The notes beneath the pieces were generated by a model, which saw only the letters and a program-made list of their open reading frames with translations, ran no database searches and was not told the origin of the DNA. This document shows positions 1 to 48,129 of a stretch of DNA of 64,000 nt, piece after piece. The DNA lies in the NCBI GenBank assembly GCA_008632985.1, contig QPGO01000016.1:592840-656839 (forward strand). The letters run 5' to 3'. The DNA is from Psammoneis japonica (lineage: Eukaryota). The position numbers and the translations under genes are program-made. The number at the start of each line of letters is the position of its first letter. Position 1 is the first letter of the stretch.

Positions 1-2179
1 CAGAAAAGATTTCTCGCATGCTCCCTGAAAACGTGTGGGTGGGAATGGGATTTGGATGGGATGCAGTCCCATGCAAACATCACTTCAGACAAAGTTGTTG
101 ACATGATCATCGACAAGATTCAAACCACCTCTGCAAGTGCTCAACTTGTGTTGACCATTGCTGCGTGCTCTGGCCTGGCAAGGTTTGACATTGACACGTT
201 GTTTTCAATGACACAAGCAATCGCCGACGTCCACAAGGAGGAAGCCATTGAAAGCATGGGGAGACTCCATTCTGTTTTGGAGACTGCCGCTCAAGATGGA
301 CTTCTTGAGGAACTCACACCTGGTGAGTTTAAGTTCGCCCACGACCGGGTGCCAGAAAGTGCAACTTCTCTTCTTCCCAGCGGCCAAAAGAAAGTTTTGC
401 TTCACTGCAAGATTGGGCAACGGCTGCAAAACATGAGTTTGATGGCCAATGACAACAGCCATGTTGGCAAGACCCGGCTCCTCCTGCTTGGTGTTTGCCA
501 GCTGAATCTTGCCAAAGACCTTGCAGTGGATGTAGAGGAAAGAGAAGAGGTTGCACGCCTCAATCTTCAAGCTGCTGAAGTTGCCATTCACAAATCCGCC
601 TTTTTCCCAGCAGTTGAATTTTTGGAAGCAGCTGCAGCTCAGCCAGGAGGGCAAAATGACAGGGATCCTTGGGAGCTGCACTGCAATTTAATGATCAAGC
701 TGTGTGCTTCTCTTGCCAAGATGAAGCTGTGCTGTGGGAAACTGGACGAATCTCGTCCCATTGCCGACACCGTCTTGCAACGGGCACAAAGTTTGAAGGA
801 CAAAGTGGGCGCTTGCAGTGTGTCAATTAATGGCCTTGTCCAGCAAGAGAGAATCGAGGATGCCACAGACCTTGACTTGTTGGCAATGGACCAGCTTGGC
901 CTCCATCTTCCTCAACGAAACTTGCATTTTCATGTTGCTGTCAACCTGATGAAAACAAGAAGGCTTGCAAAGGGCAAGTCAGATGCGGAATTGCTTGTGG
1001 ATGATGAGAGGTTGCAAACAGCGGCGCCTTTCCATTCAGAGGTGGGGGGGATGTGCTTTCCATCTGGCAACAGCCAGTTGTTGGCAACTGCATTCTTGCC
1101 GGGGCACAACAGACATTGTTGCATGGGCCAAATGATGGCTCATGTGTTGCATGTGCCGTGTGTGGGTTCATCCTGGGAAAGACTGGTGACATAAAAGGGG
1201 CCTTTCGGTTCAGCCAATTGTCGCTGCATCTTGCTGAGAGTGCAGAGCTAGTTCCGCAAAAGCCTCGCGCTGTTGCTTTAGCTCACTGTGCATCTCAGCA
1301 CTGGTTTCGGCCGCACCATGAGAGCCTCAACCCCTTTTTCATGCACGTGAACTGACTTTGGAAATCGGAGACATCCATCATTTGTGGTTTTGCATTTTTC
1401 CTTGCTGCATCGCCATGTCTGTTGTGGTCTCCATCTGTCTCTGCTGCAGAGTGACATGAAGAAATTGCAGGAGTCCTTGACGACTGTTCCCCAAGCTTTC
1501 ATGTTGCATTGGCGCAGCCCCTCTGGCAAATGGCATTGAATCTAATGGGAAAATCCCGCAATCCATTGGTTCTCAGTGGAGAAGCTGTGGAAGAAGGTCC
1601 ATGCATTGAGGAGTGGACCAAGTGCAAGAACGAGTGGCCTTTGAACTCACTGTGGCTGTCTGAGATGTTCCTTGCTTGTTGTTTCAATGATTTGACCCTC
1701 GCCAACAAAATGGCTTCAAATCCAGTCCTCCATCTGAGGAAGTCCCCTCTGCCATTCTCCCTGTCAGAGTGTCATTTGAAGGACTCATTTCCCTTGGTCT
1801 GGCCAAGTCAACTGGCAAAAGATTGCACAGGAAAAAAGGGAAACGGAGAACAAAGCAAATGACGAATTGGGTGAAGAGCGGGGCCGTAAATTGTCGCCAC
1901 ATGCCACTCTTTCTGAGAGCTGAATGGAAGGTGCTCGATACAAGGAGATCCAAAAGAAGTGCAGGATTGTGTGACAACGCCATTGTGACAGCTGCAAAAC
2001 TCGGCATTTTACACCATCAAGCATTGGCCAATGAGAGAGCTGGAATGCATTTCTTAGATGAGGGTGACACCAGTGGGCTGCAACTCCTTGACTCGCCAAG
2101 GGACCTTCACAGATTGGGATGCTCTCGGAAAGTGAAGCAAATGGAAGAGAAGTGGCTTTCTGACCAAGTCGTCAAATGA
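1..2179 (+). pseudogene. Degenerate AAA-ATPase/multi-sensor kinase-like gene (C-terminal helical/TPR-like part)
   Basis: Motifs FKFAHDRV.ESA.SLL, LNLQAAEVAIHKSAFFPAVEFL and QALANERAG are typical of this family. They are split across frames (52-1194, 1053-1355, 1509-1862, 1769-2179) with stops. The 380-aa ORF has no Tyr. 5' part lies outside the window. Confidence 0.7.
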
Positions 2180-4230
2180 GGACAACACGCATCGGTCCTC
2201 TGGGGGGCTTGAGTCACGCACTTGATTGGATGACGTCGATGGGGACCATCACAAGTTGTTGTCTTGTTGGATTGGGGCATGTCTGACTCAGAATGGATGG
2301 TCACTGCAAGACAACAGAGAGTCTCTTGATTCAAGGTTGTAAATGTTGACAGGGATGAAACAAAGTGTGTCTAGAAATTGTGACAACAAGAGCTGAATGT
2401 GAAACGTTCATTCATTTTGAGCAATTTTGACAATTGATTGTGATGCATTGTGACATGATGATGACACTCCCTCTCAACCAGAGTCACCAGCCAAGCAGAC
2501 TCTCATGACCAACTTTAAATTGACAGAAGGTGGTCCTTGAAACTGAGCCGGGGCATTGGCAGTGAGACCCTCAAGGGTGTCAATCATCTTGCCATGGTTT
2601 TGCCCACAGCAGTGCCCCACATTGAAGACAGTGGCTCCATTGAGAGTGCATGCCAGTGGTGCATGGGCTCCTGGTGTGGTGAGCACTCAAGTTTTGCAAA
2701 CCCTCTTGATGCTCACAGAAGGTTGTTGCCAGGGTTTGGTGAGCGCCGCGTGAGCATTCAAGTTGTGCACTTGTTGGAAAAAAGAAAAACATCCAGCATC
2801 GGGGTTTGGGTTGACAATCACTTGACTCACTTGCTGCCAGCTGAACCTTGAGGGTGGGATGAGGCTTCCCACTCCTCTCTCTTGCTGCACTCTCTTGAGT
2901 CCAATCTCACTTTGCTGAATGACTGGCAGGTGCTGCACGCTGTGCCACCAGAAGCTCGTGGTGGCGTCACCTTTTGCGTGAGAAGACATGGGCACACAAG
3001 TGCACACAAATGGTGCAGACACACATGAGCAAGATTCCTGCTGCTGCCTGGCCAGCTCTGTGTCTGATTGCCTCAAGAGACAAAGTCTCAACACACAAGA
3101 TTCTGTGCGTTTGGTGCAAGATGTGATGTGGTGTGACTTTGGAAGGTTCTGTTTGTTGCTGAGCATGAAACAATCAACAAGAAATCTTGGTCACATTCCA
3201 GAAAAAGTTGAACAACAACACACGCAACAATGGTCTTGACAACTTCTCTCAACACATCCACAAAAAAAGTCTGTGACCTGCATTTTTTCCCACATTTTCC
3301 ACAATGTTGTCCCCCCTCCTGTGCAGCATGAGAAAAAATGCTCTGCTCATCATCAACAAAGCCCTTGATGCACAATGTTGCTTGGTTGTGCAAGCTCAGT
3401 CCAGGGTTGTGCACTGCAGCATGGTGTGGCACAAAATGATGTGTGGCGTGTTGGCCATGACAAGAACAGCCCATTGGAAGAAGTCAAAGGAGTTGGATGA
3501 ATCGTTGGATGAAAAAAGGAAGAAACTCCAAGTGCAAGACTGTTGCAGAGCACTGGAAGAGTCTGACAAGTGGATGAAGTGTGGAAGGACACCTCACAGC
3601 CACAAGACCCACTCGTCCGTCGGGAAGCAATTGATGTGGGTCCGTCAATGACTGAGCTCTGCAGGAACAGGGAGCTTGTCTGGACTGTTCTTCATGGAAT
3701 GTCAGACAAGAACAAGAAGGAATTTGAAGAAAAATTGCATGAGCTGTGGGTGGAAAGGCATGATGGTGCTGCAGCGCGGCTCGTGACGTGCTCCAGCAGC
3801 CCTGGGTGACGCACGAAACGACGACATTCCCTTTTGAGCACAATTTGCACAAGCACTTTGTGCATCTCACTCTTTGGAGTGAATCATTTGGTCCAGACAA
3901 TTTTGTTGCTGGCATCAGCAGGCACCTGCTGAGTTGCAAGCTTGAAATTTGTTTCAAAACTTGCTCCAGGCAACTCTCAAAGCTGCTGCAGAAACCAAGG
4001 CAAGTGCGATGAGCAGCACAGGGGAAACCCCTTGCAGGATTCATCCCTTTTGGTGACATTGCTGGTTCAACAAAGAGTGTTGAGAATAATGAGCTTGTGT
4101 TTTTGTGGCGGGGGAGATTTCAACAAGGTCAACACTCCCAATCTCTGTGACACAAAACAACAAACAGCATCAGAAGTCGAATCATTCGATCACACGGTTC
4201 ACACGAGCTGAAGCGCGCGCGCGCGCGAAC
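1..4230. other. TpA-depleted (hypermutated) block 1
   Basis: About 5 TpA counted by eye in 1-1200, versus about 11 in only 240 nt of the DnaJ exon at 5161-5400. ORFs here almost lack Tyr and are Cys/His-rich. TpA returns abruptly at ~4246. Confidence 0.9.
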
Positions 4231-14704: not shown

Positions 14705-14915
14705 GTTGCAGTGAATGGCACACTGACGACTGTTGATGGTGTGGCGAATTTGCGCTCTCAGCTCGCGGCGGTGCCGGCGCTGGCTGCTTGTCTGCGAGTC
14801 TTGTGCTCACTTTTTAGCTTCTGCACCTGGTTGAAACAGCAATGGCAGCAACAACATTAGAATTGTGTCTGCAATCTATGCAGTGAAGTCAGGGATTGAT
14901 GAGACCAAGCGCGCC
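14705..14915 (+). repeat. Solo LTR-like fragment related to the repeats at 40.05 and 41.7 kb
   Basis: Shares gttgcagt...cactgacgac...ttgtgctcactttt(t/c)agcttctg...tgagaccaa with 40091-40260 and 41750-41930. Confidence 0.55.
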
Positions 14916-15799
14916 AGTCATGTCAAATGCAGGGGCAAAGAAAAAGAGCGGCTGTGTGAGACATTCATGAGTCCTTGCTCTTCTGAAAAGAACTTGCCAA
15001 GTCAGGTCACTTTTGGCGCGTGACCGAAGAGCGCAAATGATGCTGTGTGCTTTCTCTGACATTCACAAGAGAGCTCAGAACTTCCATGCCAAGGAATTTC
15101 TGAGGAATGAGCACAAGTTCACACCAAGCACTGTGGGGACAGTGTGCGAAACACTTGCTGAGCTTTGAAAAGGCGCTCCTGCTGCTCAAATCATCAAGGA
15201 TTTTTCAAAGAAGGCTCCCCAAGGAACACAAGGAAGAACTCTGTTGCAGTGCAGAACCAATTGTGGCTCAATGAGCATTGGTGGTGCCCAATGGGCCTGC
15301 ACATCATTGGTGGCTTTGAGGGAGGATCAAGAAAGAGGAGAAAGCACTCGCCACAAAGGAGCATGTCTGGAAAATGCACGGCCCAAAAGTGAAAAATTCT
15401 TGCTGCTGACATCACAAAGTTCATGTGCCCAACATCAATGGCCATCAAGACTTCATGGTGAAACATTTTTCAAGACATGTCAAGGCATGCCATTGTCGCG
15501 CATTTGCCCACCCATGTGTGGCCCAACACAATCCAAGAGTTTACGAAAATGGGGGGGGGCACCGACGGAAGAAGAGGGGGGGAGAGGGGGAGCAAAGTGA
15601 CCCCGTTGCTGCTGCAACAACAAGAGAGAAGGAAGGAAGAGAGGAGAAGAACGCAGCAATGGCGGAAGTGAGAGCAAGATGCGACACGTTGTTGCGTTTC
15701 GTGGCGCTGAAGATAGAGTGCATCAGCCCATCGCGCACAAAAAGATACAAAGGTTGATTTTATTTAGGCGGCATCGCCCCCCATTTCCCATCTTCCATC

Positions 15800-18700
15800 T
15801 TGTCCTCAATTTGAGACGCAACATGGGACAGAATCACAGTTGCAACAATGCATCTGCATTTGCAGGCTACTTTGATGAACAATGTTCATCATGTGGCACT
15901 CTTCCTTGAGCAGCCACCCCCAACAAGTTTGTTTTTGAAAGGTGAAAATCTCGTGCTCGGAAACAACAGAATTTTTGAGCAGACCCAGCTGCAGATTCGG
16001 CGGCATCTGCAACGGCGGCAAAAATGTTGGAAAACTTGTCCAAAATGAATTGACGGCAATCGGCAGGCAACATGGAACCATGCATGGTGCAATCGGCACT
16101 GGTGGCGGCTTTCGTGGCAAGACCACCTCCTCTTGCAAATTGCAGGTTTCATTTTTTTGGCACGTGGCTCCTCAGACAGCGGCAGTTGCATTGACTTGGT
16201 TTTCCTTCTGCATGGGTTCTCCACTGTTGGCACTGGATTGGAACGAGTCAAATGTGGATTTTTTGTGCCACACTTGTTGCACATGCACCGGTCAGGATCT
16301 TGTTTGGAGGATGCTGCTGTTGTGCCGGTGCGCGCCTTCCTTGATTTGAGCTCCTCTCTCAAATGCTCAAGTTGCTTTGGGCAAGCTGAAAAATGTCACT
16401 CTCCATTGTCTTGCACCAGCTCTGTGACATTCTCATGCACAGGATGCTGAACTCCGGCTTTTCGTGCCAGCTTGTTGTTGTGGTCGAGACGGCTGTGATT
16501 CAGAAAGGTTGGAATGCGCGCGGAATCTTGGCGCGCTCGTCAGCTGTCATGTCATCAATTCGGTGATGCTCTCTTGTTCCCATGTCATGCTCACAAGTTC
16601 CAGCAAGACAGAGAGCATCAATGAGGGTGCTTCTGGAACTGGTGTTCCCAAAATGCTTGACAACGTGATGACATTTTTCCAACTTCGACTCCGTGCCCGT
16701 GGCAGTGACGCATGCGTCGAGCTTGCACTTCGACCATTTTGAAGGGTGCACAACACGGCACAAGTCTTCACGTGCAAGTGGCTTGTCAAGTCCACAATTT
16801 GACGCTGTTGCATTTTCTACTGCTGGCTCAGCATCTTCGGTGAAAAGCGGCTTGCCAGAGTCAGGGTCGTGTCGTCCGCCGGCTTCAGCCGCTCCAGGAG
16901 ACGCAGTGCACTTGCAGCAGTTGAACCATGCCTCAAGATTTTTGTTTCGAGTTTCTAGAGGGTAAGTCCACCTTCGAATGTACTTTTTGTAGTTCTTCCA
17001 TTTCTGTGTTGCACATGCACCAGTCAGGATCTTGTTTGGAGGATGCTGCTGTTGTGCCGGTGCGCGCCTTCCTTGATTTGAGTTCCTCTCTCAAATGCTC
17101 AAGTTGCTTTGGGCAAGCTGAAAAATGTCACTCTCCATTGTCTTGCACCAGCTCTGTGACATTCTCATGCACAGGATGCTGAACTCCGGCTTTTCGTGCC
17201 AGCTTGTTGTTGTGGTCGAGACGGCTGTGATTCAGAAAGGTTGGAATGCGTGCGGAATCTTGGCATGCTTGTCAGCCGTCATGTCATCAATTCGGAGACG
17301 CTCTCTTGTTCCCATGTCATGCTCACAAGTTCCAGCAAGACAGAGAGCATCAATGAGGGTGCTTCTGGAACTGGTGTTCCCAAAATGCTTGACAACGTGA
17401 TGACATTTTTCCAACTTCGACTCCGTGCCCGTGGCAGTGACGCATGCGTCGAGCTTGCACTTTGACCATTTTGAAGGGTGCACAACATGGCACAAGTCTT
17501 CACGTGCAAGTGGCTTGTCAAGTCCACGATTTGACGCTGTTGCATTTTCTACTGCTGGCTCAGCATCTTCGGTGAAAAGCGGCTTGCCAGAGTCAGGGTC
17601 GCGTCGTCCGCCGGCTTCAGCCGCTCCAGGAGACGCAGTGCACTTGCAGCAGTTGAACCACGCCTCAAGATTTTTGTTTCGAGTTTCTAGAGGGTAAGTC
17701 CACCTTCGAATGCACTTTTTGTAGTTCTTCCATTTCTGTGTTGCACATGCACCAGTCAGGATCTTGTTTGGAGGATGCTGCTGTTGTGCCGGTGCGCGCC
17801 TTCCTTGATTTGAGCTCCTCTCTCAAATGCTCAAGTTGCTTTGGGCAAGCTGAAAAATGTCACTCTCCATTGTCTTGCACCGCTCTGTGACATTCTCATG
17901 CACAGGATGCTGAACTCCGGCTTTTCGTGCCAGCTTGTTGTTGTGGTCGAGACGGCTGTGATTCAGAAAGGTTGGAATGCGTGCGGAATCTTGGCATGCT
18001 TGTCAGCCATCATGTCATCAATTCGGAGATGCTCTCTTGTTCCCATGTTGCACTCACAAGTTCCAGCAAGACAGAGAGCATCAATGAGGGTGCTTCTGGA
18101 ACCGGTGTTCCCAAAATGCTTGACAACGTGATGACATTTTTCCAACTTCGACTCCATGCCCGTGGCAGCGACGCATGCGTCGAGCTTGCACTTCGACCAT
18201 TTTGAAGGGTGCACAACACGGCACAAGTCTTCACGTGCAAGTGGCTTGTCAAGTCCACGATTTGACGCTGTTGCATTTTCTGCTGCTGTCTCAGTTGAAC
18301 CACGCCTCAAGATTTTTGTTTCGAGTTTCTAGAGGGCAAGTCCACCTTCGAATGTACTTTTTGTAGTTCTTCCATTTCTTGCTGTTTTTGACATCTTCAA
18401 TTTCTTCCCGTGCACTCTTCTTCCCGCCAAGTCTGCCAGAGACAAGAGCATCAACTGCACGCGACTCGTCAGATTCATCGTTGCATTGCACACAGTCTTT
18501 CAAATCATGGACTGCATGACAACAATCGACATGGGTGGCCCGCACTGTAAGAACAATTTGATTGGTCCAGTGCCAAAGGCCAAGCCGACAAACAACATCG
18601 TGACCAAAAATTTGCTTCCAGAATTCTTCTTTGTTTGGCCATGTGTCCGAGCAGTGAACATGAGGCTTCACATTTGGACATCGTGCAAATTGCTCTGCGG

Positions 18701-20340
18701 CATGGGTGCAGTCTTTTGTTTCAAGCGTTGGTGCAACTGCCACCACTCCAATCTCCCCCGTCTTGCTTGCCATGGTGGACAGTCCCTTGCCATCCGTTTC
18801 TCTGTAATTTTTCAGTTGATCAAAAGTGTGGTCTGATGCCACACTTACACGACAACTGACCAACTGAATTTCTCTGGTGTGCCGCATGTTGTCGCTGACA
18901 CCAGTCTCGGTAAGATCTGACTCGCGTGCAGCATCACACATGTCTCTCATGTTTTGTCCCGTTGGTCCACATCGACCCATCCAGTCCTCATGTTCTGACA
19001 ATGGAGTTGTTGCATTCCCACCAGCATTGATTGACTGCAAAAAATGCCGCTCTTCCCCATCAAGAAAATTGCGGGCTCGTTGTTGATGCAAGAAGGCGGA
19101 TGTGTCATCACTGTTGCTGTGCTTCTGCATGGCGTGGTCGATGCATCGGGTCGTTGGCAAAGTCAAATGAAAAGATGGATTGGTGTCGGCGCAGCGCAGA
19201 TCAACAGGATGACAAAGTTGGAGATGCCTTGGAAGCTTTTTAAGCAGCTTGGCATTGTTCCCTCTGCACTTGCAACCGCATTTGTTGCATTTGTAGCCCA
19301 CAGACGATCCCCAATCAGTGGCGCCACTTGCATCAAAGATTGGAGTTGGCGAGTGCTCCCTTTTAATGTCGAGCTGCTGATGGATCATCTCACCATCTTC
19401 ACACCCATCAACACACGGCAAGCAGATGCCTGGGCTGTTCAATTCCCATCGGAGGACATGAACAGTCACTCCCTCAATCTCGGCATGCAAAAATCATCAG
19501 GAGCCATGGATGCATCATCCCGAGGCACGGCAAATGACGTGGTGCCGGTGGGAAAGTTCTTCTGATGCCATTTCAGTTTCTTGGCATTCACCTTTCCACC
19601 CATGATCTCATTTGAGTCGGCATGAAACTGAGATGGACACAAGTCCAGAAGACACACAATCAAAGCCTGAATGGGCGCGGGACAAGGAATCTTCTTTTTT
19701 TTGCACGTCTCGACTCGTTTCTGGATCTCTCTCTTTGGCACCGGTGGAGAAAGAAGATCTTCTTCAATGTCATTGTTGGAATGCTCCATGCTGTTTGACA
19801 TGACAGTGCTGATGGTAGCAGCAGCAGCAGCACTTGTGTTCAACATGACAGTGCTGGCAGTGGCAGCATTCGACGAGACGGCGGTTGCAGACGGCGTGTT
19901 TTTTGAAGCCCTGGTGCGAGAGCAAAAGAGTGTCTCCATGCCTTCCTCAGTTGGGGCCTGATGACCCGGTAGCTTTTTTGCATTCTTTCTTGCGTTGCAG
20001 CAATGAAGCGATGGACAGCTGCGTTTCGCTCGGTGCTCATGTTCTTTCCACAGTGGATGGATTTTGGGCAGGTCGTGTCATGACCCTTTTTGTGGGAGGG
20101 CCCTTGTTTGCACCTTTTGCATTCAACAACCTTTTCTTGAGTAGTGTGACTGTTTGGTAGAGTCAGAATTTGCGATTCTGCCTCTGCCGCCGGTGATGTT
20201 GTAAACCGAGGCGCATTTTTCCCCGACAACTTAGCGATTCCAGAAAAAGCTCGCTCCTTTGCTTTTTTCGTGGCTGCCTTTCGAGTCTGAGACTGAACAC
20301 CCATGGTGCTGGGAAGCTTACGGGAGCAACACTTCTCCAT
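15800..20340 (-). mobile_element. Degenerate Kyakuja-Dileera-Zisupton (KDZ)-like DNA transposase
   Basis: Motifs SDHTF, TGEIGVVA, SDTWP and CRLGLWHW (cf. Zisupton RLDIWH), plus GTESKLEKCHH..HFGNT...LAGTCE (cf. RGSTSLESFH...LEG..RWN). Cys/His knuckles at both ends. Broken by frameshifts and an internal triplication. Confidence 0.65.
16275..18380. repeat. Three tandem copies of a 732-bp segment of the transposase
   Basis: Units start with tgttgcacatgcacc at 16275, 17007 and 17739. The third copy lacks ~89 bp between CAG microhomologies. Confidence 0.95.
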
Positions 20341-24031: not shown

Positions 24032-27018
24032 ATGACAATGTTCTTGTCGGCATCATCGTACTACTCACCCACACAAATCACCTTGGCGGTATTGATTGCG
24101 CCTTGGTTGTGGTTGCATCTCCGCCGTCAGTTTCAGAATTACCGCCACGCCCGTCGACGACACAAGTATCCACAGCAATACCTCTACGCGACACCGCAAC
24201 TGCGACGAAAACCCAAAACACCCAATCAAGTCTATTGGGACTTTGTATCGAACCGCGTCTGGCCCATTGTGGCATATGTCGTCTATCATTTCTTTTTATT
24301 GTCGCGGTTTCTTGTGGTGCATGCACTGTATCAAGGAGTCCTCGTCAAGTGTATGACTACTTCAAACAACAGCCAAAGCCGTCTGCATTGAGAAACTCTT
24401 CAGAACAGCAACAACACAAGCAGAAGCAAAAGAAAAAGACAACACGAGTTGAATTTGAAGAGCATACGGATGGCCAAGTCTATTGTGAACGACACGAATA
24501 TGATCCGTTGGCACAGCCCAATCCACAAGCAGCAACACCTGAATCTCCGGTTACACCTACTACAGCAACTCCAAGACCCAAAAGCCGTGTACAGGATCGA
24601 GTCGCAACGCCCGCACCCAAAAAACGACCACCACGTCAAGAACCAATCAAACAAGTCAAGAATCGCATTCCTACACCAGCTAGAAAGCGCAAGCCATCCG
24701 CACGAACCGAGTACAACAAGAAAACGCAAATCATGAACAAGTACCATCACCAAGAGACGAGCGTCGTGCTTCTTCGACTGGAGCTTCGACTGCCACTTCT
24801 ACACCTACTGCAGCAAGAGCTCCTACAGCTGCCAGAGTTTCTTTTTCTACTGCATCAGCAGCTACAACTACTCGTCCACAACAACGACAAGACCGTCCCA
24901 TTACGGTACAACCTCCCCAAGCCAAACGGTACAAGCCACTCTTTGCACCCGTCGACACGACGCCATTGGCGGTACGCTATCGCAAAAAGCGCAAGGGACA
25001 ACCCAAAGATGATTCCGAAGAAAAAGAGGAAGAACGCCCCAAGCAACGAGGACGATTGGCTCTCCGTAGTACAGCAACATCGACCGCAGTGCGGCCTCGT
25101 CGACCCCTGAATCGAAAACGGCCCGAACAAGATGCCATTTGGCAAGAAATGGATCAACCCGTCAAGAAAACGCGCAGTGCTGCTGCTGGGAATGGAACTG
25201 CGAGTACAGCTACACCTGCGAGTGGTACTAGTACAGGTGGTGGAACCACATTAAACCTTGGAGGGACGCCAGCCGCTGCCGCGACCACGAATACTCCAGC
25301 CGCGGCAGCGAGTGGACCCAAGATCATCTTTGGAGGGACGCCCGCTTCAGCGACACCTGCTACCACAACTGCTCCAGCTACGACAACCACATTCAACCTT
25401 GGAGGGACGCCAGCCGCTGCGGCGGCACCTGCTGCAACCACGAATGCTCCAGCCGCATCTACTACAACCGCCCCCGCTCCCGGCACGGGTGGGCCCAAGA
25501 TCGTCTTTGGAGGGACTCCCGCTTCAGCTGCAACCACGAATACTCCGGCGCCTGCTACTACGGCAACGCCTGCTGCCGCCACTGGTGGAACTGCACTCAG
25601 TTTTGGAGGGACGCCCGCTGCTGCTCCAGCCGCCGCGACAACAGCACCCACTGCCGGAGCAAACAATCAAGCACCCAACGCTGGAGGCTTTGGTGGTAGT
25701 GCTGCTTCGACCGCAGCACCTACAACGACACCCGCCGCCACTACCAATACATTCTTTGGAGGGACGCCCGCTGCCGCAGCGACGCCCAATCCGACAAGCC
25801 TTGGAGGAACTGCACCTACTGCCAATGGCGGCGGAAACAATCTCAATGTTGGAGGCACACAAGGTTTTGGAGGCGGTACTCCGGCAACCAATTCGGCTTT
25901 TGGCACAAGCACTCAAGCTGCGGCGCCTACCACCACCCCGTCAGGCTTTGGAGGAATCAAGGAGGCGCCCAAGACTACCTTTGGAAGCGCTTCTGCCGCC
26001 ACGACAGGCTTTGGCGTGAACACTCAGACAAATACTGCTGCACCGACCGCCACGACAGGCTTTGGAAACACACAGACGAATGCTGCGGCAGCCGTCACGA
26101 CAGGCTTTGGAGGAGGAAACACTCAGGCGTCCAAGACCACTTTTTGGAAGCGCTCCTGCAGCACCTGCTGCAACGACAGGCTTTGGAGGAACTACTCAGA
26201 CAAATGCTGCTGCACCTGCCACCTCGACAGGCTTTGGAGGAGGAAACACTCAGGCACCCAAGACCACTTTCGGAGTCGCGCCCGCCCCTGCTGCAACGAC
26301 AGGCTTTGGCGGAACTACTCAGACAAATGCTGCTCCCACCAACACGACGGGCTTTGGAGGAGGAACCAATCAGGCTCCCAAGACCACCTTTGGAAGTACT
26401 ACTTTTGCTGCAGCTGCCGCCTCGACAGGCTTTGGCGGAACTTCTCAGACAAATGCTGCTCCCACCACCACGACAGGCTTTGGAGGAGGAAACACTCAGG
26501 GACCCAAGACCACTTTCGGAGCCATGAATGCTACACCTGCTCCTGCTTCAAACCCTTTTGGAACTAGCACGAATCAAACACCGTCCGCCACAACAGGAGG
26601 AACGCCTGGTACTACCACTCCTTCCGCAAATCCCTTTGGTTCCAACACAAATCCAACCACCTTTGGAGGTGCACCGGCTGCTGCGCCTACTCCATCGTTT
26701 GGTTCCAGCACGACAACGGCAGCTACTCAGCCCTTTGGCTCCAATGCAAATCCAGCACCGACCACTACCTTTGGAGGTACCCCGGCTGCTGCTCCATCGT
26801 TTGGTTCTAGCGCAACCAACACTCCTGCTACTACCGGCTTTGCTCCCAATCCGTCATCTGCTACCACCACGACACCCAACTTTGGAGGAACGCCAGCGTT
26901 TGGAACTACTACAGCAGGAGCCACTCCAACTCCATCCTTTAGTATCGGCGCGGCTCCCAAGCAGAGTGCCAGCAGCCGTCGACGTGCCAATCGCAAAAAG
27001 ATGGCGTCAAGAAAGTAA
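24032..27018 (+). CDS. FG-repeat nucleoporin with N-terminal hydrophobic segments (POM121/Nup153-like)
   Basis: Many FG/FGG repeats at 25330-26950 and basic NLS-like clusters (RYRKKRK, RKRP). C-terminus is PSFSIGA...RRRANRKK. The N-terminal ORF 24032-24391 has two hydrophobic stretches. Joining needs frameshifts near 24340, 24740 and 26143. Confidence 0.75.
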
Positions 27019-33835: not shown

Positions 33836-34960
33836 TTAGTCCGTTTTGTTTTCGTCGTTGTTCTTTTCATCCTTCTTGGGGTCCTTCAAAAAGAGCTGAC
33901 CCTTGCTATCGACATCAAACAAGTCCACCGACGGAATCCTCTGTGAAACCGCATCCGAGATCAAGGGAATCTTGTCGGGAGTTGTGCCAAGCAGGGAACT
34001 GACCGCCGAGTAGGAAATTGCCAAGACAATAGTCAAAAAGACAGCGTCGGAACCAATCTCAACGGCGCCTTGAGGAATCTGCAAGTTGGCGGCATTACCA
34101 ACCAAAGCCACAAGTGTGGCGAGGATGCTCGGGAAGAACTGAGCGATGTCCAAAAAGATTGCTTGCTTGGTGTTGAATCGAATCAGCTTGTTAATGGCAA
34201 GGTTGTCGCCAAGGGTAGATAGCGCAAAGTAGGCAATAAAGGGAGCAAATGGAATGGATCGGTAGGCAACCGATAAGAGACCAAGTCCCTGAACAAGAGG
34301 ATTATCCTGATGCTGCGAAAGCAAGAAGGCTCCAAATTGTACACTGTCCAAAAGCGGAAATAGATAAGGAAGGACGGAAAGAACCTTCTCGGTATTCGTT
34401 GGTTGCTTGTCATTGATCGCATCATTCAACAGGGACAACTGCGCTTCTGCCTCTTTCTGTGCTTGTGTCTTTTTCTGCGCATCCAAAGCCTCCGCTTTTT
34501 CCTGTCGGAACATTTGCTCCAACTGATTCCTAAATTTCTCAATGCCCACAAATTCTTCTTGCTGCAAGACACCGTCGCCATTTGTATCAAACTCTTTCAT
34601 GAGTCTCTGTACCCGTGTCTCTGACAATTCCAATTTGAGAGTCTTTTCGAGTCCGGCCTTGAGTTCGTCCAGGGTAATTGTTCCGTCTTTGTTGCTATCA
34701 AACTTTTGAAATGCCTTTGCAGCAGCTTTCTGCTTTTCTGTGGCTGTGTCTTGTTCCAACATTGCAACTTCGCCTCGAAGCTTGGCCGCCATGGATCGTA
34801 GTCTCTCGACTTCCTCGTCAGTGTTGGTTGCGTATAGGGGTCTCACTTGCGAAATGGTCGAGCGTTGTGCGGTAGACTTGACTCCAAAGCGAGAGACGGG
34901 AGCAAAGGCATCGCTGCTTCCTGCAAGAAGCAATACTAATAGAGCTGCTGTGGTCTTCAT
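33836..34960 (-). CDS. TIC20: Tic20-family plastid import channel fused to two EF-hands
   Basis: Signal ending SDA-FAP; EF loops DSNKDGTITLDE and DTNGDGVLQQEE; Tic20 motifs LPYLFPLLD and IRFN..QAIFLDI. Confidence 0.75.
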   Translation of the reverse strand: MKTTAALLVLLLAGSSDAFAPVSRFGVKSTAQRSTISQVRPLYATNTDEEVERLRSMAAKLRGEVAMLEQDTATEKQKAAAKAFQKFDSNKDGTITLDELKAGLEKTLKLELSETRVQRLMKEFDTNGDGVLQQEEFVGIEKFRNQLEQMFRQEKAEALDAQKKTQAQKEAEAQLSLLNDAINDKQPTNTEKVLSVLPYLFPLLDSVQFGAFLLSQHQDNPLVQGLGLLSVAYRSIPFAPFIAYFALSTLGDNLAINKLIRFNTKQAIFLDIAQFFPSILATLVALVGNAANLQIPQGAVEIGSDAVFLTIVLAISYSAVSSLLGTTPDKIPLISDAVSQRIPSVDLFDVDSKGQLFLKDPKKDEKNNDENKTD

Positions 34961-36084
34961 GTTGTAGCTGATGGTCATGTTTGTGTTGGTGATCGTTTTC
35001 GATTTTGTGAGACTATTCGGTGTACTCTTCGCGATGATTATCGGCATGTTCTGAGAAAATCTTGGCTAGCTCAGCTAAAGATCTGCCACCAACACGTGCC
35101 ACGACAGCAGAATTCGGAATTCATTGACATGATTGTTCTCCACTTGCGTCAACCCATTTGTATTGGATCCAGCGTTGATTCTACGCCAAAAGTTGAGACG
35201 TGTCTTGAGTCCCAAATGCCGTCAATGAATGATGAGTCAGTCCCGTGCGTCAGTCTCAGTCACGGGAGCATCCTGAATCACGCCCATCGAGCGATCCAAC
35301 ACATTGCTTTGCTCTCTACTAGCTCATCAAATCGATGGGTGACAGCTACAAGCGCCGTGCTTGTAGTTGGATTGCATCAGAATCAGCTGCCAACATAGAA
35401 ACTGTTTGCACAGCGGTGGAAAATAAAGAAGGTCTTGCGTAAAGCTGGCTAGCAAAAAGTGATCATAGTGCGGAGTCTGGATGATGAATCTTTTTCAATG
35501 ATAACAAAACTGTAACAAGTTTCAAAACTATGACGCTCAAAGTTGACTAGACGATGAATGCATTAGCACCATTTACTGATACTCCTAGTAGATGGTCGCT
35601 GCTCGCTGCTCCTACCAAGAGCGAGACGGTGGTGAGCACGGGTGAGAGCCCCACCTCATCAGTTTCGTTCAAAGAATACCTTTCTCGCCAATATTTTTTA
35701 TGGTATGAGCTTCCATGAATAAATATGGAACAAAGAAAGCACGTGTGAAACAAGCAATCATTTCTTGCATTTGTCGTCGACGTCTTCTTGCTTTGAACGA
35801 GTCGAGTGGGCAAATGATCCGATGAAGGCCCAACCACCCCTTGGAAAGTTGTATTTGGATGGTAAATGAACAAAAAGGATACACACAGAGAAGTTATCGT
35901 CACTGTAGGTATTCAATTTGGTGATGCCAACGCATATGCGGCAACCGTCGACCCTTGTCCGTGTATCGCTCGGCACGCATACACATCAGGTACAAAGATG
36001 ACCGCCTAATTCCTGCTATGCTTCGGGGCTCCTCCTCGTCATTACGGGGTAGTGGCGATTCCACAGCACGACCGTTCCCTCTTT

Positions 36085-37374: not shown

Positions 37375-37480
37375 CAGAGTTGTGAGAGAATCCACAGAGG
37401 AGCTGCCCACCAACCAGTGATGAACTGTTTGCTGATCAGTGAGGCCACCCCCCTCCTCTGATGGCAACCTCACATGTCCA
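37375..37480 (+). repeat. Dispersed ~100-bp repeat (also at ~37718, ~39562, ~48030; partial at ~42563)
   Basis: Consensus acagagttgtgagagaatccagaggagg...gtgaggcccc(tc)ctgatggcaacc. Confidence 0.75.
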
Positions 37481-40047
37481 ACGCACCTGGATGATGACAA
37501 ACAGACAAGCGCCGCCACCATGTGCCAAGATCTCATGCTCAGGCAGCTCTCAGATCACTCACATTCTTTGTTCCCCTCTGTGCACATGTGGCTCCCTCTT
37601 TTGTCTCTCTTTGTCAGCCTCCTGGCTGCTGTTGACACTGTGCAAGCAGCGGCAGCTGCAGTGTGCAAGATTGCCCAGCATCAGCCAAAAAACTTGGCAG
37701 AGAAAAGTTGCAGTCAACAGAGTTGTGCAAGAGAGGATCCAGAGAAGGCTTCCATTGACCAGCAGTCTTTGCTGGTTGGTGAGTGGTGAGGCCCCTCCTC
37801 TGATGGCAACCTCACACCACACCCAAGAACAACACACACACTTCTGAGTGCCACACACCATCAAGAAGCAGGTCTGACAAAGAGAGTGCTGGGCTTGTTG
37901 GAATTTTCCAACTGCAGACAGAAAGGTCCAAGGGTCTTTTTGGTGGGCACCAAGTGACACTGCTTTGAGAAACATGGCAGTTAGATGCAGGGCCAAACTC
38001 TTGCCCATGCAGCCCACTCTCACACCTTGTCTTTGGGAGAGAGGAGACTTGAAATTTGATGCTGGCAGAGATGCTGGCAGAGATCAAAATGTGACCCACA
38101 AACCAACAGCTGCAGGCCAAAGGCTCTGAAGGTCTTTGATGGGCACCAAGCATCACTTCAAAAACTGTGGCAGACAGACACAGGTTCAATCTCTTGCCCA
38201 TGAACTGGCCAAAAATTCATTTCCAACAAGGGCTTTGAAAGCATCCCTGCAACCAGCGCCATTCTGCCAATGCAAGTTGGCAACAGCGGCAGCAGCATGG
38301 AGCTGGTGAACATGACAGTTGCAGCCTGGTCAGAATGAAAACTGTCCCACTGGTTTGTGAGCTGAGCAAAGAAGTTGTTTTGCTTGATCCTCAGAGGATT
38401 CAAGCACACAAACCAGCAGCAAGCTCCTTCTTTTCATCTTGGAGAGGTTCAAATGATGCAAGAATGATGGCCAAATGCAAAAGAGCTTGTCCAAAGCTGT
38501 TGGGGTGTGGTGGACCACCCAACAGCATGACTCTGCTTCCAGCTGAGATCAAGTCTTGAAAATGCCATCTCAAAATCAAGGCACCCATGAGAACACAGCA
38601 ACGCTCATTTGAGACACCAGTGGAAAGCTCTTGATCTCAGCTTTTCAACAACGTGTGCAACACAAGCTGGCAATGGTGCTTCCTTGACAAGTTGGGAGTG
38701 ACAAGCAGCAGCAGCACCACCACCACCAACAACATCAAGTGCAAAGAAGAAATTTGTGTGCAGGCAAATCACTTCATGTTTTTTTCAGTTCTTCTTTGTC
38801 CACAACACAGCTTTGAAACTCTTTTCTTGCAGAAAACAAAACATCAAAAAACAACATGGCAGCAAAGCCGCCAAAGCTGGTGAAAGACATTGAGAATGAT
38901 GAAGCTGTGGAAAAGTTCCATGTGACTGGCTTTCAAGTCCTGCTGATTTGCCAATGTTCTGCAAGCATTGCACAGATGTGAACAAAAGGAAGCCAACAAA
39001 ATGCAAGTGTCCAAAGAAGCCAAGATTGCAGTTGACAGAGAGCAGCAATGTCCCCACCATCAAAATGCTGAGTGACCACACCTGGTGCACTTTGAAAGAC
39101 CAAGCTGTAAAAACACACTGCTTTTTCATCCTGGATCAAGCACCCCTGTTTTGTCAAGAAACACAATGGCAAAAATGATGCTGTTTTGTTTTGCCACTCT
39201 TGCCATGAACTGTCAATGAGGATGCAGGAAAACAGCAGAGAACAGTCTTGTCTGTTCCCATGCTCTCCTTGCATTTCTCAGCAACAACTTTGAGTTTTGG
39301 AGGAGAGCAAAGCTGGTGTGGTGTGCAGAGAGCAAAACATGCTTCCAGCCGTGCACATGATCTCAATGGGAGGGCAGGTCAATCTGCAAACAAGATGCTG
39401 GCACACACTCAAAATGCACACATCTGTGCACTCCTTTTTTGAGGAAACAAAAGAGCTTTCAAAGCCGTGCACAATGAGGCTATTTAGAGAAGGCTCCAGA
39501 ATCTGCTTGAGAGAGGAAGACAAGTTTGGCTTGCCCCCAACCATGAAAAAAGCATGTTGATCAACAGAGTTGTGAGAGAATCCAGAGGAGGCATCCACTG
39601 GCTGGTGGTGTCACTCTTTGATGATTGGTGAGGCCCCCCTGATGGCAACCCCCAGTGTGGCATGTCCAAAAGAGTGATTGTGCAGCACTTGCAAATGCTG
39701 CTGGCTGACAGCCCCCCAGCAGAGCCACAAACCCATTCTGTCATCAAATGGATGAGAGCAAGATGCGCACAGGCTGGCAGTGTCATGTGCTTGCTCAGCT
39801 CAGATCCTTCACTCTTGCTCCCCTTTGCTGGCATGCAGCTTGCTCTTTTCTGTTTTTGTTGGTGTGCAGGGCTCAAAGTGCAGAGCCACTTGGTTTGACA
39901 GAGGTGTGTGTGTGCTTGCAGGGGGGGGGGGAGCAAGGCGCATGCCACCACAGAGGCTGCTGCTCTGTGTGAGACAATGGCAATGCAAAAAAACCAGTGG
40001 CCAAGAGAGAAAAACAAGATTTGACAACAAAAACTTGTGGTCAACAG

Positions 40048-41980
40048 TGTTGGAACATTGGGGCCAGAGGTGGTTTTTGCAGGACAGAAAGTTGCAGTCA
40101 AAGATGCACTGACGACAGTGGACAATGTGGCAAGTTTGTGTTTGCAACTTGGGCTGAGTTGTGGATCTTGTGCTCACTTTTCAGCTTCTGTGCCAGGTGG
40201 GCATGGCAACAGCAGTCAACAGCAATGATCTCACAGTGAGTTTGAAGATGGTGAGACCAAATGCACAACAGCCTGTGAGCCACGAGGCTCCAACACAGAA
40301 ACTGAAAAGTTGTGGCATGACACTCACAGGAGTGGCACAATTTGATGGCTGGGAAGTCAAGAGGAGTCCAAAGTCAAAGGCTGGGAAGTCAAGAGGAATC
40401 ATTCAAAGATGAGGGCTGGGAAGTCCATGGGATTCCAAAGGTGTGACTCATTTTGGCTGATCACAGCAAACAAAATGGCTGGACAAAGGCAAAGAAACAA
40501 TCTCTGGAGGAACTTGCTGCCAAAGAAGCTGATGAGGGTCTGCTGAAAGAGGGCACAGCAAGGTTGTGTCAGGGTCAGTGAGACACAGTGTGCAACTGTT
40601 GGGGCAGGCCATGACACTCCAATGCAAAGTCCCAGAAAAGATGGGGGCAAGGACACAGCTGAGTGCAGAAGCATGAAAGATTTTTAAAAGAGTGGGTGTG
40701 TGATGCCATTGCCACAAGTTTGGATCACAGGCAGATGGTTGAACAGGAACTGCAATTGAGATTGGTGAGTGTGTCAGAAGAATGTTCAGGTTGGAGATGC
40801 AGGCATTGGTGTCTCTGAGGCAGGAGAGCATGCCAGAAAGAACTGGTGAATCCATTTGGAGTCACCACATCAGAGAAGGACAAGGCAACCTGGGGCAAGC
40901 AATGTGATCACTGTGTGAAACAGAATGTGATCTACAAGATGCAGAAGGCAAAGGCCTTCAATGCAATTGTGCGGCATTGTGCAAAGGCCATTCATCACAA
41001 GCTTGAAGGAGTGATGGAGTTTGTGAGAGTCACAAAGAAGTGAGATGTGGCAGCACTGCTGGATGTTCTCAAGCTGATCTTGTTTGGTGCAAATGAGAAG
41101 ACAACCCCGCATGTCCAGGTGGTCTCAAGGCTTGGAAGCAGTTGACACTCATCTGTCAAGATGAAGGAGAGGCACTTCAATGTCATTGCAGTTGGTTTGT
41201 GAGCATGGTGCAAATGGTGGAAATGTCCTGTGGCAGGATCATTGTAGAAGAAATTGCCAAGAAAGAAGGTGGGTTGAGCAAAAAAAAGGCTGATGAAACC
41301 CAGAATGTAGAAAGGAACAAGTCATCAGTGGTGGTGATGCTGATGGAAGGCACCAAGGACCGTTGGCATGCCTTGAAAAACCTGCATGAGCATGTCACAT
41401 TGGGGGCTGACATTTGTCCCATTTCAGCTGAGGAGGCACTGCAGGTGAGGGTGCAAGTTTTGCACAGAGAACAAGAAGAAGAAAAGATTGCATGCTGGAT
41501 GTGCAACAAGGTTGGACATGATCTGAGGAGGGGTTGTCCTGACAATGACCATTCGTTGGCACAGTCAGATGACGCGGACCATGGGAATTGGCAGAGCACC
41601 CAGTCAGCATGGTGTTGGGTGGCACAGTTTCCAAGTGTCATCCTTCCATGCTTGATGTGCATTGGGTCAACAAATTGACAGCTTGTGTGAAGGAGTGTGT
41701 GTTAAAGTGTCAGGGTTGGAGGCAGTTTTTGCAGGACAGACAGACAAAGTTGCACTGTAAAATGCGCTGACAATTGTGGACAACATGGCAAGTTTGTGTT
41801 CACAACCCAGGTTGAGATGTGGCACTGTGCTCACTTTTTAGCCTCTGCACCCAGTCAACATGGCAATGGTGGTTGACAGCAACAGCAATGAGTTTGCAAG
41901 CCACATGATGAGTTCAGAGATGGCAAAGCCAATCATGCGACAGTTGGCAAGCCATGAAGCTCCAGCAAACAGAGTTGAGT
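40048..41980 (+). mobile_element. Decayed Ty1/copia (CoDi-like) LTR retroelement remnant with gag relic
   Basis: Diverged direct repeats start TGTT at ~40048 and ~41700, the second preceded by PPT-like gaaggagtg. Between them are gag-like KLEG...DVAALL..LK.ILF and a zinc knuckle CWMCNKVGH...CP. Confidence 0.55.
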
Positions 41981-44433: not shown

Positions 44434-45020
44434 TCAAGTTGCAGGGCAGCAGCTTGACTTGCTGCTGTGTGGCCCCACCACAAGACAAACAAATGAGCCA
44501 TTTGTGCAACCCAGTTGATTTGAAAGACTCACAGTGAAAGCAGCATCAGCTTGCCTCAGCAATGCACTCAAAAGTGTTGTGGATGAACCTTGGGCTGGTG
44601 ATGGAGTTGGCACAGTTGCCAGGAAGATCGTTGGACACTTTGAAGGAGGGGACGTTGACGGCATGCTGGAGGGGGAAGTTGCTGGTGCTTGGTCAGTGCA
44701 CGGAGCCCAAAGGTGGAGATGCCAAAGCTGATGCTGACTTGTTGGCAGCACTGGAGTGGACACAGGTGCAACCAGTGCCGGAGGAAACATTGGTGACTTT
44801 GTGGCAGAAGTGGCACAGGCTCAGTTGTTGGTGAAAGCAAGGGTGCTTTGGATCTGATTTGGAACATGGGTGGGTGGCACATTTGTTGGTGAGTGGACTG
44901 GAGAGATGCATTTGCACAAGGAACAGTTGCAGACTTGCTGGTTGGGGCAATGGCAGTGACCCAGATGCAGGCACAGGCTCAGTTGTTGGCAGAAGTGTGG
45001 GTTCCATTTTGTGTTGCATC
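44434..45020 (-). pseudogene. Relic of a Pro/Thr/Ser mucin-like repeat protein
   Basis: PTTEPVP occurs twice, plus PSSMPSTSPPS and PTPSPA, split over several frames. Confidence 0.4.
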
Positions 45021-45499
45021 TGATGTTTGTGTGTGATTGGGTGCTTTCAATGGCTGGTGCAGGGAGGAAGAGATGCACACTTTTGCATGAGCTGGTTGGC
45101 TTGATCCAAGGACATGCAGATGGATGGTTTGATTTGGCATTGCTTGTCAGCACTGTTGTCAGCAAATGGCTCCAACCACTCAGGGAAAAGAGGGAGATGC
45201 ACTCAAAGGCAAAGGGGTCTCAGAAGGGGGGTGGTGGATGTCAAACTTTGTGCTCAGCAGCCCAGCTCATCAGAGGTCATTTTGTTTTGTTTGTCAGTGT
45301 GCAACAAAGCTTGGCATCATGCTGGGTCTCTCTGCACAGCCTCCATGAGGACAGCCTCCATGAGAACTCAGTCTGTGGCTTCTTGCCATCTCCATTGACA
45401 GACAGATAAAATGCACAGAAAATGCACACACTCCAACACAAAAAAATCCTCACCACAACAATGAACCACTGCTCTGCAGAGAGGCAAAGGCAATCAAGC

Positions 45500-47350: not shown

Positions 47351-48129
47351 GCATTGGCCACAAAATCTGTTGGATTGTTGGCAGTCATCACCACTGTGGT
47401 GGCAGCAGCCTGTGTTGGTTGTAGAGCATGTGGGTCACCATGGCTGCATCATGCTGCAGCTGCTGAATTCCTTCCTTTTTATGGTGCTGCCACCAAGCTC
47501 ATGCACTGCAGTGACAAACCATGCACACCTTCTGTTGGCGGGGTTGTTTGGCAGTGTTCTCAGCTCTGCTTGAATGATGATCCCCCACCAATCAGCTTCA
47601 TGTTCTTGTTGGAGCTGCACCTTTGGGTGCACTCAGCCTTGCTTGTCACATGCATGGCTTTGGCATGGACTTGGGCACCAGACAATCTGACACCTTAGAT
47701 CTGGTGCCATTGTTTGAGAGGATGCCTCACAATGGTTGTCAAAGAGCAATGGTGATCACATTGCCCCACTCATCTCAAAACAGCAATCAACTTTTTGTTG
47801 TCACTGACTGAGCACAAATTCATTGCCTCCAATTGCAAAGGTCCATTGAAGCCATTGGATTGGCACTGTGGCAGCCAACTCTTCTTCCGACGAGTTTAAG
47901 AGCATGCAAAACAATGTGATGATGCTGTGCGACGTGTGCTTTTGTGTTTAGCGAAACAGCTGGGGGGTCGAAAATCTACCTCAATTGAGGTCCTTGACAG
48001 ACCAGACACTTGACAAAAGGTTGCAAACTACAGAATTGTGAGAGGATCCAGAGGAGGCACCCAATGACTGGTGATGTTGCTCTTTTTTTTCCCCCGGATT
48101 TGTGAGCCCCCCCACAACAAACCAACCCG

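Follow-up and report, generated by a model that had tools for sequence, protein, structure and literature searches.

Apparent TpA hypermutation and CpG decay in an internally triplicated transposase-like gene and in sharply bounded islands of a diatom genome

A 64,000-bp stretch of the nuclear genome of the diatom Psammoneis japonica (assembly GCA_008632985.1, contig QPGO01000016.1, positions 592,840 to 656,839 of the forward strand; hereafter, the window) contains, on the minus strand, a decayed transposase-like gene (15889-20077, delineated by open reading frames (ORFs) and homologs) in which an internal segment is present in three tandem copies, and this element lies within one of five islands from which the dinucleotide TA has been almost completely purged. 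We consider it probable that two context-specific transition processes act on these islands, namely, a hypermutation of TpA and the decay of CpG, and that both continued after the segment was duplicated. As independent replicates, the three copies record both processes at work once the duplication had taken place. The earlier note on this DNA had inferred from the letters alone that both acted on the copies after they were duplicated, and this is supported here by the polarity of the changes, by the replacement of conserved tyrosines with histidine or cysteine, and by the regional loss of TA.

The array consists of three head-to-tail copies of a 732-bp unit, with start-to-start spacings of 732 and 731 bp (repeat finding and blastn), all read on the minus strand: copy A (16275-17006), copy B (17007-17737) and copy C (17738-18380). 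The unit corresponds approximately to residues 656-898 of a homolog, P0001, and copy A represents the C-terminal third of the transposase-like gene (tblastn with P0001 residues 656-808 and 801-898). Copy C carries two deletions, one of 1 bp (after 17881) and one of 89 bp, the latter being the counterpart of 16829-16917 in A and flanked by CAG microhomology. At the position of the 1-bp deletion, A and B read accAgct, and an inserted G is present in the sole contig there from run X1, the only public sequencing run that contains the stretch (56% of its sampled words, as short contigs); if this G is the state of another copy, it would imply accGgct, with a CG that has disappeared from A and B in the meantime. 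Pairwise identity among the copies is 96.6-97.7% (blastn), which amounts to 2.3-3.4% divergence, and the differences are unevenly distributed along copy B. Over its left ~300 bp (columns 1-300), B differs from C at 3 positions and from A at 9, whereas over the next ~255 bp (columns 300-555) its differences number 3 when it is compared to A and 11 when it is compared to C (site patterns [[7,1],[1,6]]; Fisher p=0.010). Judging from these patterns, copy B is a mosaic of a C-like left part and an A-like right part, and the triplication arose by unequal crossover, because an exchange of this kind in a diverged two-copy array predicts the transition from X-Y to X-(Y left/X right)-Y. The 732-bp segment would have been duplicated first, the two copies would have diverged, and a later unequal crossover would have made the middle copy B by joining a left portion from C to a right portion from A. 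Given the mosaic, the differences that are unique to one copy within its sister segment should be the youngest ones; these are five or six CG decays (columns 272, 457, 482, 522, 655 and perhaps 293), one non-CG C/T change (column 77) and one TA to CA change, in B at 17713. Searches with blastn and tblastn detected no other copies of the element elsewhere in the window, and no convincing terminal inverted repeats were found there.

Of the 26 substitution columns inside the unit, 16 belong to CG sites, 3 to TA sites, 4 to a single CATG/TGCA block and 3 (columns 77, 290 and 552) to none of these; two adjacent CA/TG doublets are present among the copies. When the numbers of available sites are taken into account, variation affects 3 of 5 TA sites, 15 of the 43 CG sites and only some 4 of the 633 positions elsewhere, and all 15 variable CG sites oppose CG to TG or CA. 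Positions in TA context vary in 3 of 10 cases, compared to 8 of 637 other positions (Fisher p=4e-4), where the 8 include the 4 block positions and a junction base. Thus, the enrichment of changes at TA and CG that was anticipated from the first reading of this array is evident, and its statement that most of the remaining differences are CG versus TG/CA holds as well. The first of the three variable TA sites, in a GTAC context, has TA in A (16981-16982) and C (18355-18356), and CA in B (17713-17714), where tyrosine is replaced with cysteine. The second has TA in A (16963-16964) and B (17695-17696), and CA in C (18337-18338), and the third has TA in A (16818-16819) and B (17550-17551), and TG in C (18281-18282), a difference of valine versus alanine. 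These are the patterns that the earlier note had listed, in the order A/B/C, as tgTAc/tgCAc/tgTAc (16981, 17713 and 18355), ggTAag/ggTAag/ggCAag (T or C at 16963, 17695 and 18337, the 18336 of the note being off by one) and tcTAc/tcTAc/tcTGc (A or G at 16819, 17551 and 18282), and all three are confirmed. The block reads, on the plus strand, CATG in A (16586-16589) and B (17318-17321), and TGCA in C (18049-18052), so that the minus strand encodes His-Asp (gagCATGac) in A and B versus Cys-Asn (gagTGCAac) in C, again in agreement with the original description. Among the TAs of the unit, cTAGa and gTAGt are invariant, and the most recently changed one is GTAC.

The direction of these changes was assessed on an alignment of the gene with 55 full-length homologs. 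At 17713, the family column contains 32 Tyr, 11 Phe and 4 His but no Cys; since A, C and the family consensus all have tyrosine and only B has cysteine, the comparison indicates that TA is the ancestral state and that this is a polarised TA to CA change in B. In the block, the second codon specifies asparagine in 55 of 55 homologs and in C but aspartate in A and B, and the family column for the first codon contains 22 Tyr, 14 His, 5 Arg and 4 Phe. A CGCG ancestor, which the earlier note had regarded as not formally excludable, is ruled out because it would require aspartate in place of an asparagine that is invariant among the 55 homologs and retained in C. The best-supported ancestor of the block appears to be TATAAC (Tyr-Asn), which we consider fairly likely although not proven. 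Accordingly, of the Glu-Tyr-Asn ancestor that had been proposed, the Tyr-Asn part finds this measure of support in the two columns, whereas the glutamate does not, its column being unconserved (25 Arg, 18 Glu). At 16819, the family column (20 Val, 10 Ile, 8 Leu, 7 Thr, 4 Phe, 4 Ala) mildly favours valine (GTA), and at 16963 it is uninformative on polarity.

The same direction of change can be followed at the protein level across the gene as a whole, which provides the most powerful evidence for it. As tyrosine is encoded by TAY, histidine by CAY and cysteine by TGY, replacement of tyrosine with histidine or cysteine is the TA to CA/TG change seen in the protein. At the 18 columns with a tyrosine consensus, the gene has 5 His, 5 Cys, 4 Tyr and 4 other residues; the 10 of 18 His and Cys compare to 49 of 989 in the 55 homologs pooled (p=6.7e-9), and the consensus residue is retained at 4 of 18 tyrosine columns versus 119 of 200 columns for other residues (p=0.003). 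The CG counterpart of this erosion is seen at the 15 conserved arginine columns, where the gene has 3 Gln and 1 Cys. Along the gene, the conserved-tyrosine columns are at first rich in histidine and then rich in cysteine (heterogeneity p=0.002). Among the best 150 homologs, 4 contain at most 0.3% tyrosine, versus a median of 3.7%, with histidine or cysteine at the conserved-tyrosine columns. The tyrosine-free or tyrosine-poor relatives, all from metagenomes, are P0092, P0101, P0082, P0053 and P0133, and some of them are one-sided in their replacements at these columns (9 Cys and 2 His in P0092, 8 His and 1 Cys in P0101, 8 Cys and 1 His in P0082). As a lead only, this one-sidedness hints that the hypermutation proceeds in strand-coordinated runs and that it does so in other organisms as well.

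The signature extends far beyond the element. The five islands are sharply bounded and total 30,604 bp. They are located at 1-4000 (observed/expected ratio (o/e) of 0.00-0.10 for TA and 0.28-0.43 for CG); at 14900-20300, which holds the element (TA o/e 0.09, CA/TG 1.57, CG 0.65); at 37400-49450, the largest, in which the part from 37.5 to 48 kb has 0-4 TA and 0-7 CG per 500 bp; at 50300-54400, where 50.3-51.5 kb is purged of TA only and 51.5-54.4 kb of both TA and CG; and at 57450-62500, purged of both. Together, the islands contain 119 TA (o/e 0.06), 535 CG (0.29) and 6664 CA+TG (about 1.75), compared to 1273 TA (0.54), 1794 CG (0.98) and 5121 CA+TG (1.23) in the 33,396 bp outside them, and the longest TA-free gaps in the islands reach 1640 bp. 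The four pyrimidine-purine (Y-R) steps, when summed, make up 23.9% in the islands versus 24.5% outside, a constancy that conversion of TA and CG into CA/TG by transitions would produce. The thresholds by which TA-depleted clusters have been defined in Bigelowiella natans (rho TA <= 0.43 and rho CA+TG >= 1.52 in 1-kb windows; bioRxiv 10.64898/2026.01.13.699255) are passed by 30 of the 64 1-kb windows here, in 5 runs of 3-12 windows; the TA o/e is 0.00-0.11 in most of the qualifying windows, and the CG o/e is 0.03-0.19 in the oldest island windows. GC-biased gene conversion can be rejected as the cause by inference from composition, given that TA alone collapses among the dinucleotides made of A and T only and that GC content increases only from 46.9% to 48.7%. 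The DNA outside the islands, although it bears genes, is also low in TA (TA o/e 0.54, CA/TG 1.23) and similar to the metagenomic relatives of the transposase-like gene (TA o/e 0.40-0.77), and a low-level leak of the TA process into ordinary DNA is possible.

The two losses are separable. TA has been lost with CG near normal in the focal element and in the segments at 48-49.5 kb and 50.3-51.5 kb (2-8 TA and 20-32 CG per 500 bp at 48000-49450 and 50300-51500), whereas no stretch of the window has lost CG and kept TA; the TA process is therefore ahead of the CG decay. The segments at 48000-49450 and 50300-51500 may represent an island of recent origin or, alternatively, a gene of host type on which the process is under way. 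Within the islands, the stop codons TAA and TAG are almost gone, so that only TGA interrupts the reading frames and overlapping ORFs of 100-400 codons occur on both strands; because of this loss, ORF length is no evidence of a gene there. Among the 94 island ORFs of at least 110 aa, Pfam recognised a single domain, a U-box (E=1e-5), in an ORF on the minus strand (48631-49167) that belongs to a TA-purged, CG-normal stretch. The first island contains a 397-codon ORF (1-1191, plus strand) for which no sequence homolog was found and whose nearest protein Atlas clusters are bacterial hypothetical proteins, some of them TPR/MalT-like (score 0.98); a non-eukaryotic origin of this island is a lead.

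The loss of TA depends on the flanking bases, whereas the loss of CG does not. With the survival of TA expressed for each context as islands relative to the rest of the window, none of 351 ATAT sites is retained, followed by GTAC (0.016), ATAC/GTAT (0.02), ATAG/CTAT (0.04), ATAA/TTAT (0.07), CTAC/GTAG (0.12), GTAA/TTAC (0.135), CTAG (0.15), CTAA/TTAG (0.31) and TTAA (0.55). Thus, with R for purine and Y for pyrimidine, loss at R-TA-Y far exceeds that at Y-TA-R; the survival of CG is flat across flanks (0.26-0.44). When the other islands are compared to the DNA of 79 relatives as the baseline, 2 of 1415 RTAY, 37 of 3171 mixed and 49 of 1425 YTAR sites are kept. For a single strand, the context of the changed A is 5'-T-A-[T>C>G>A], and the values for the two strands combine in a roughly multiplicative manner; both strands are hit equally at saturation in the islands. 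The fall of the dinucleotide AT (0.77) and the rise of the dinucleotide GC (1.26) in the islands follow from this flank rule.

The low TA content of the element is not a trait of its family. All 79 related loci from metagenomes have a TA o/e of 0.40-0.77, and the depletion in the element is therefore derived. The contigs of run X1 that match the stretch number 296, of which 96 do so at >=99% identity and 124 at 90-95%, and the summed contig depth reaches 1431 versus about 50 for single listed contigs; the transposase-like family is multi-copy. Transitions account for 91 of the 109 variant places in X1, and the 33 listed events include 16 of the CG class, 6 CA<->TG doublets and 3 of the TA class. 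There are also sites at which all X1 contigs differ from the window, such as 18661 and 18857, where the window has TG and the contigs have CG; where the disagreement is unanimous, a TG or CA of the window faces a CG of the contigs 12 times. Two further runs yielded 2 partial contigs (X2) and none (X3).

The gene that contains the array consists of a 400-codon ORF (18291-19493), the three unit ORFs and a C-terminal tail (15889-16395) with a CxCxxC motif. Copies A and B have a frame shift in common, near 16500-16540 and 17232-17250, next to a stop after '...FQPF' (tblastn); because it is shared, disruption of the gene probably preceded the duplication. The family has 553 representatives at E<=0.001, typically of about 1000 aa, the best of which is 39% identical, with invariant columns D503, D568, E749/E753, N764 and N784 (P0001 numbering) and clusters of cysteines at both ends. 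Pfam produced no match for the six ORFs of the gene or for 8 homologs, but 4 of 30 homologs match DUF6729 (PF20499; best E=7.8e-6), which the gene's own ORFs do not; in the protein Atlas, the clusters nearest to P0001 are those of DUF6729 and, more weakly, of Mutator/MULE elements. A profile search of solved structures with the transposase family returned 0 matches, a word-index search with the unit ORF gave no 'longer' homolog, and no relatives of the gene were found in viral contigs. The resemblance to KDZ transposases suggested in the earlier note finds no support, in that the KDZ transposase model matched none of the 6 ORFs of the gene or of the two sets of 8 and 30 homologs, and the sole KDZ-linked hit was a weak CxC5 match in 1 of the 30 (E=0.038). 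As to the W/Y-N motif named in the note, the family does have the invariant asparagine of the block (55 of 55), preceded by the column with 22 Tyr, 14 His and 5 Arg. The array is an internal triplication in a dead copy of a multi-copy, ~1000-aa transposase-like gene that is probably related to DUF6729, and, judging from the protein sequences, the family is possibly Mutator-like. The features that would link it to DUF6729 and Mutator-like proteins are the length of ~1000 aa, the invariant D, D and E/N columns, of which the catalytic role is putative, and the cysteine clusters, but it differs in that the gene's own ORFs match no Pfam family.

We propose that the TA changes result from a TpA-specific hypermutation that would convert TA to TG, or to CA when the other strand is hit, most strongly at R-TA-Y; if adenine is the changed base, its context would be the 5'-T-A-[T>C>G>A] given above. 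This process would have removed about nine tenths of the TA of the element before the duplication and would still be removing the rest. The CpG decay (CG to TG/CA) would be an ordinary, slower process that lacks a flank preference and fits the deamination of 5-methylcytosine in silenced repeats. The TA changes have a consistent pattern, a direction, a regional confinement and a dependence on flanks, and we infer that an enzyme underlies them and that its action is directed at silenced or foreign DNA. Deamination of adenine in DNA at TpA, the chemistry proposed for B. natans, appears to be the most likely one here, a suggestion that we make tentatively; a point in its favour is that, in the natural substrate of tRNA adenosine deaminases, the edited A is preceded by U. 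A less likely alternative is that the changed base is T: if an oxygenase of the TET/JBP type modified thymine at TpA, for example to 5-hydroxymethyl- or 5-formyl-uracil, the product would mispair with G and yield T to C, and the same class of enzymes, acting on 5-methylcytosine, could explain the loss of CG in the same islands. TA to CA and TA to TG are one event on opposite strands, and the sequence cannot tell A from T; moreover, each of the two purged dinucleotides is a Y-R step that is self-complementary and contains a 5-methylpyrimidine, CG is fully lost only within DNA purged of TA, 5-formyluracil forms pairs with G, and the DNA of dinoflagellates carries 5-hydroxymethyluracil at TpA. 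Against this alternative, the TA and CG losses come apart at 48-49.5 kb, at 50.3-51.5 kb and in the focal element, and only the TA loss has a flank preference.

Other explanations dispense with a TpA process altogether. The element and the islands could have been TA-poor from the start, owing to foreign origin or selection against TA, in which case the TA differences among the copies would be ordinary transitions, possibly from CA/TG to TA. If TA is derived, 3 changes among about 130 CA/TG sites are not unusual beside 1 other non-CpG transition, and two of the three TA sites are unpolarised; nevertheless, we find this improbable, given that 17713 is polarised from TA to CA, that replacement of tyrosine with histidine or cysteine in 10 of 18 conserved columns damages the protein and is not a compositional preference, that all 79 related loci have a TA o/e of 0.40-0.77 with the Y-R total equal inside and outside the islands, and that RIP-like CA to TA change would enrich TA, observed at 0.06. 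Still less credence can be given to an artefact, be it a triplication created by assembly error or an island composition created by systematic miscalls of modified bases in an assembly built from long reads. In favour of an artefact, the array is spanned by no read, just 56% of the sampled words are present in X1, and all contigs disagree with the window at some places, including the 12 cases of TG/CA versus CG. Against this, the copies differ in a structured manner, by CG and TA transitions and with a clean mosaic switch, rather than by random errors or homopolymer indels; 96 of the 296 X1 contigs are >=99% identical to the TA-poor stretch; strand-specific miscalls at palindromic TA and CG should give all four Y-R pairs rather than the loss of both; and tyrosine-free homologs come from independent metagenome assemblies. 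The least plausible proposition is that CpG decay acted alone, with the TA sites and the block explained by chance or by a CGCG ancestor. Such decay does account for 16 of the 26 substitution columns, and a change of CGCG to CATG is directly visible at 16533-16534 versus 17265-17266, but the asparagine found in the 55 homologs and in C is incompatible with the aspartate that CGCG requires, and CpG decay explains neither the variation at 3 of 5 TA sites (p=4e-4) nor the removal of TA from 30 kb.

Several points nevertheless weigh against a TpA hypermutation that continued after the duplication. Only one TA change of the array, that at 17713, is polarised by the copies themselves, whereas 16819 and 16963 split C from A and B and are polarised, if at all, by remote homologs of about 35% identity; for the block, ancestors with TG or CA would cost as many steps as TATA. 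The other four islands contain no recognisable transposon or viral gene, so that their repeat or foreign nature is assumed. The island DNA shows no signal of strand-coordinated patches, either by CA versus TG per kb or by heterogeneity of RCAY versus RTGY (p=0.12-0.61). The 79 relatives were retrieved with a tyrosine-containing peptide pattern, which selects against purged copies. The triplication is without confirmation by spanning reads, none of the listed X1 contigs spanning the 732-bp unit or showing its junctions (the longest listed there is 237 bp), and the sites at which all contigs disagree with the window imply that X1 is not an exact match or holds only paralogues there.

The closest precedent, and the only one for TpA-specific DNA hypermutation found in the literature searched, is the 2026 preprint on B. 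natans. In a mutation accumulation experiment, 230 of 231 mutations in integrated giant-virus and virophage regions of this alga were A to G or T to C, and according to the text all of them fall at TpA, at a rate that exceeds the background about 1000-fold (Mettrop et al., bioRxiv 10.64898/2026.01.13.699255). In the same preprint, the genome has 124 TA-depleted, CA+TG-enriched clusters, DDE and reverse-transcriptase domains are overrepresented in its TA-poor genes, and the authors propose an ADAT2-like deaminase, with the enzyme described as unknown; the long-term footprint is modest, with a rho of 0.45 in the nucleocytoplasmic large DNA virus (NCLDV) region and a cluster cut-off of 0.43; the Discussion states that ADAR favours a 5' U, and CpG, flanking bases and diatoms are not mentioned in the text (bioRxiv 10.64898/2026.01.13.699255). 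The two systems have in common the TpA to TpG/CpA transitions, their regional confinement, and the depletion of TA with enrichment of CA+TG in 1-kb clusters. They differ in the host, a chlorarachniophyte (Rhizaria) versus a diatom (Stramenopiles), and in the targets, which are viral insertions in B. natans, whereas here the identifiable target is a DNA-transposon gene and no viral gene was identified in the islands. The depletion of TA in the diatom islands is near-total (0.00-0.11), compared to the rho of 0.45 reported for the NCLDV region, and the islands also lose CG and follow the R-TA-Y >> Y-TA-R rule, on both of which the text of the preprint is silent. Finally, de novo mutations were seen in B. 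natans, whereas the diatom provides a footprint only.

Better-known systems resemble the islands in part. In fungi, repeat-induced point mutation (RIP) takes the form of a C to T change, mainly at CpA, that makes TA and lowers GC. With RIP, the islands share dinucleotide-biased transitions that are confined to repeated or mobile DNA, with sharp bounds and destroyed genes, but the flow is opposite, from TA to CA/TG, and TA is erased; an RIP-like change of CA to TA is contradicted by the island composition (TA o/e 0.06, CA/TG about 1.75). Methylation-driven CpG decay shares the CG to TG/CA change (16 of the 26 copy differences), the low CG and the lack of flank preference, but it explains only the CG half of the pattern and, in the window, proceeds more slowly than the TA process and is restricted to DNA already purged of TA. 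Editing by ADAR and APOBEC enzymes is likewise a context-dependent transition aimed at selfish sequences; here, however, a gene of the cut-and-paste type is targeted in DNA, the host is a diatom rather than an animal, the preference is for a 3' pyrimidine, and both strands are affected equally at saturation.

Outside the islands, the window encodes, on the minus strand, a Tic20-like protein with EF-hands (33839-35065), with a hydrophobic N-terminus followed by '...SSDAFAP', which we take to resemble the signal-peptide/Phe motif found on proteins targeted to the plastid in algae whose complex plastids are of the red type and which would fit a diatom. The named relatives of this gene (33839-34960) are all diatoms, Seminavis, Cylindrotheca and Attheya among them, with a top identity of 64%. 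The region 25200-26850 (plus strand) contains degenerate direct repeats at offsets of about 120-260 bp and 69-83% identity, inside long overlapping ORFs that are rich in Pro, Arg, Gln and Leu; it has a GC content of 0.545 and strong GC and AT skew, and is unrelated to the islands.

The footprint first described in B. natans is thus found at near saturation in a diatom, a member of a major and genetically tractable algal group, and with a transposon as the target. The TpA process is separable from CpG decay and faster, and its flank rule, R-TA-Y >> Y-TA-R, is one that any candidate enzyme must reproduce. Genome annotation must allow for two consequences, namely, that the loss of TA removes TAA and TAG stops and so creates long spurious ORFs, and that the change of conserved tyrosines to histidine or cysteine hides transposons from domain searches. 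Conceivably, diatoms possess a targeted DNA-editing defence that erases TpA from transposons and other silenced DNA, with a strict R-TA-Y preference and at a faster pace than CpG decay, and that is the same system as that of the chlorarachniophyte, old in the Stramenopiles-Alveolata-Rhizaria (SAR) assemblage; we regard the case for this proposition as evenly balanced. The tyrosine-free transposase relatives in unrelated metagenomes suggest that the defence is widespread in nature. If this is true, it would be a long-standing defence of the SAR lineage, functionally parallel to fungal RIP but chemically its opposite.

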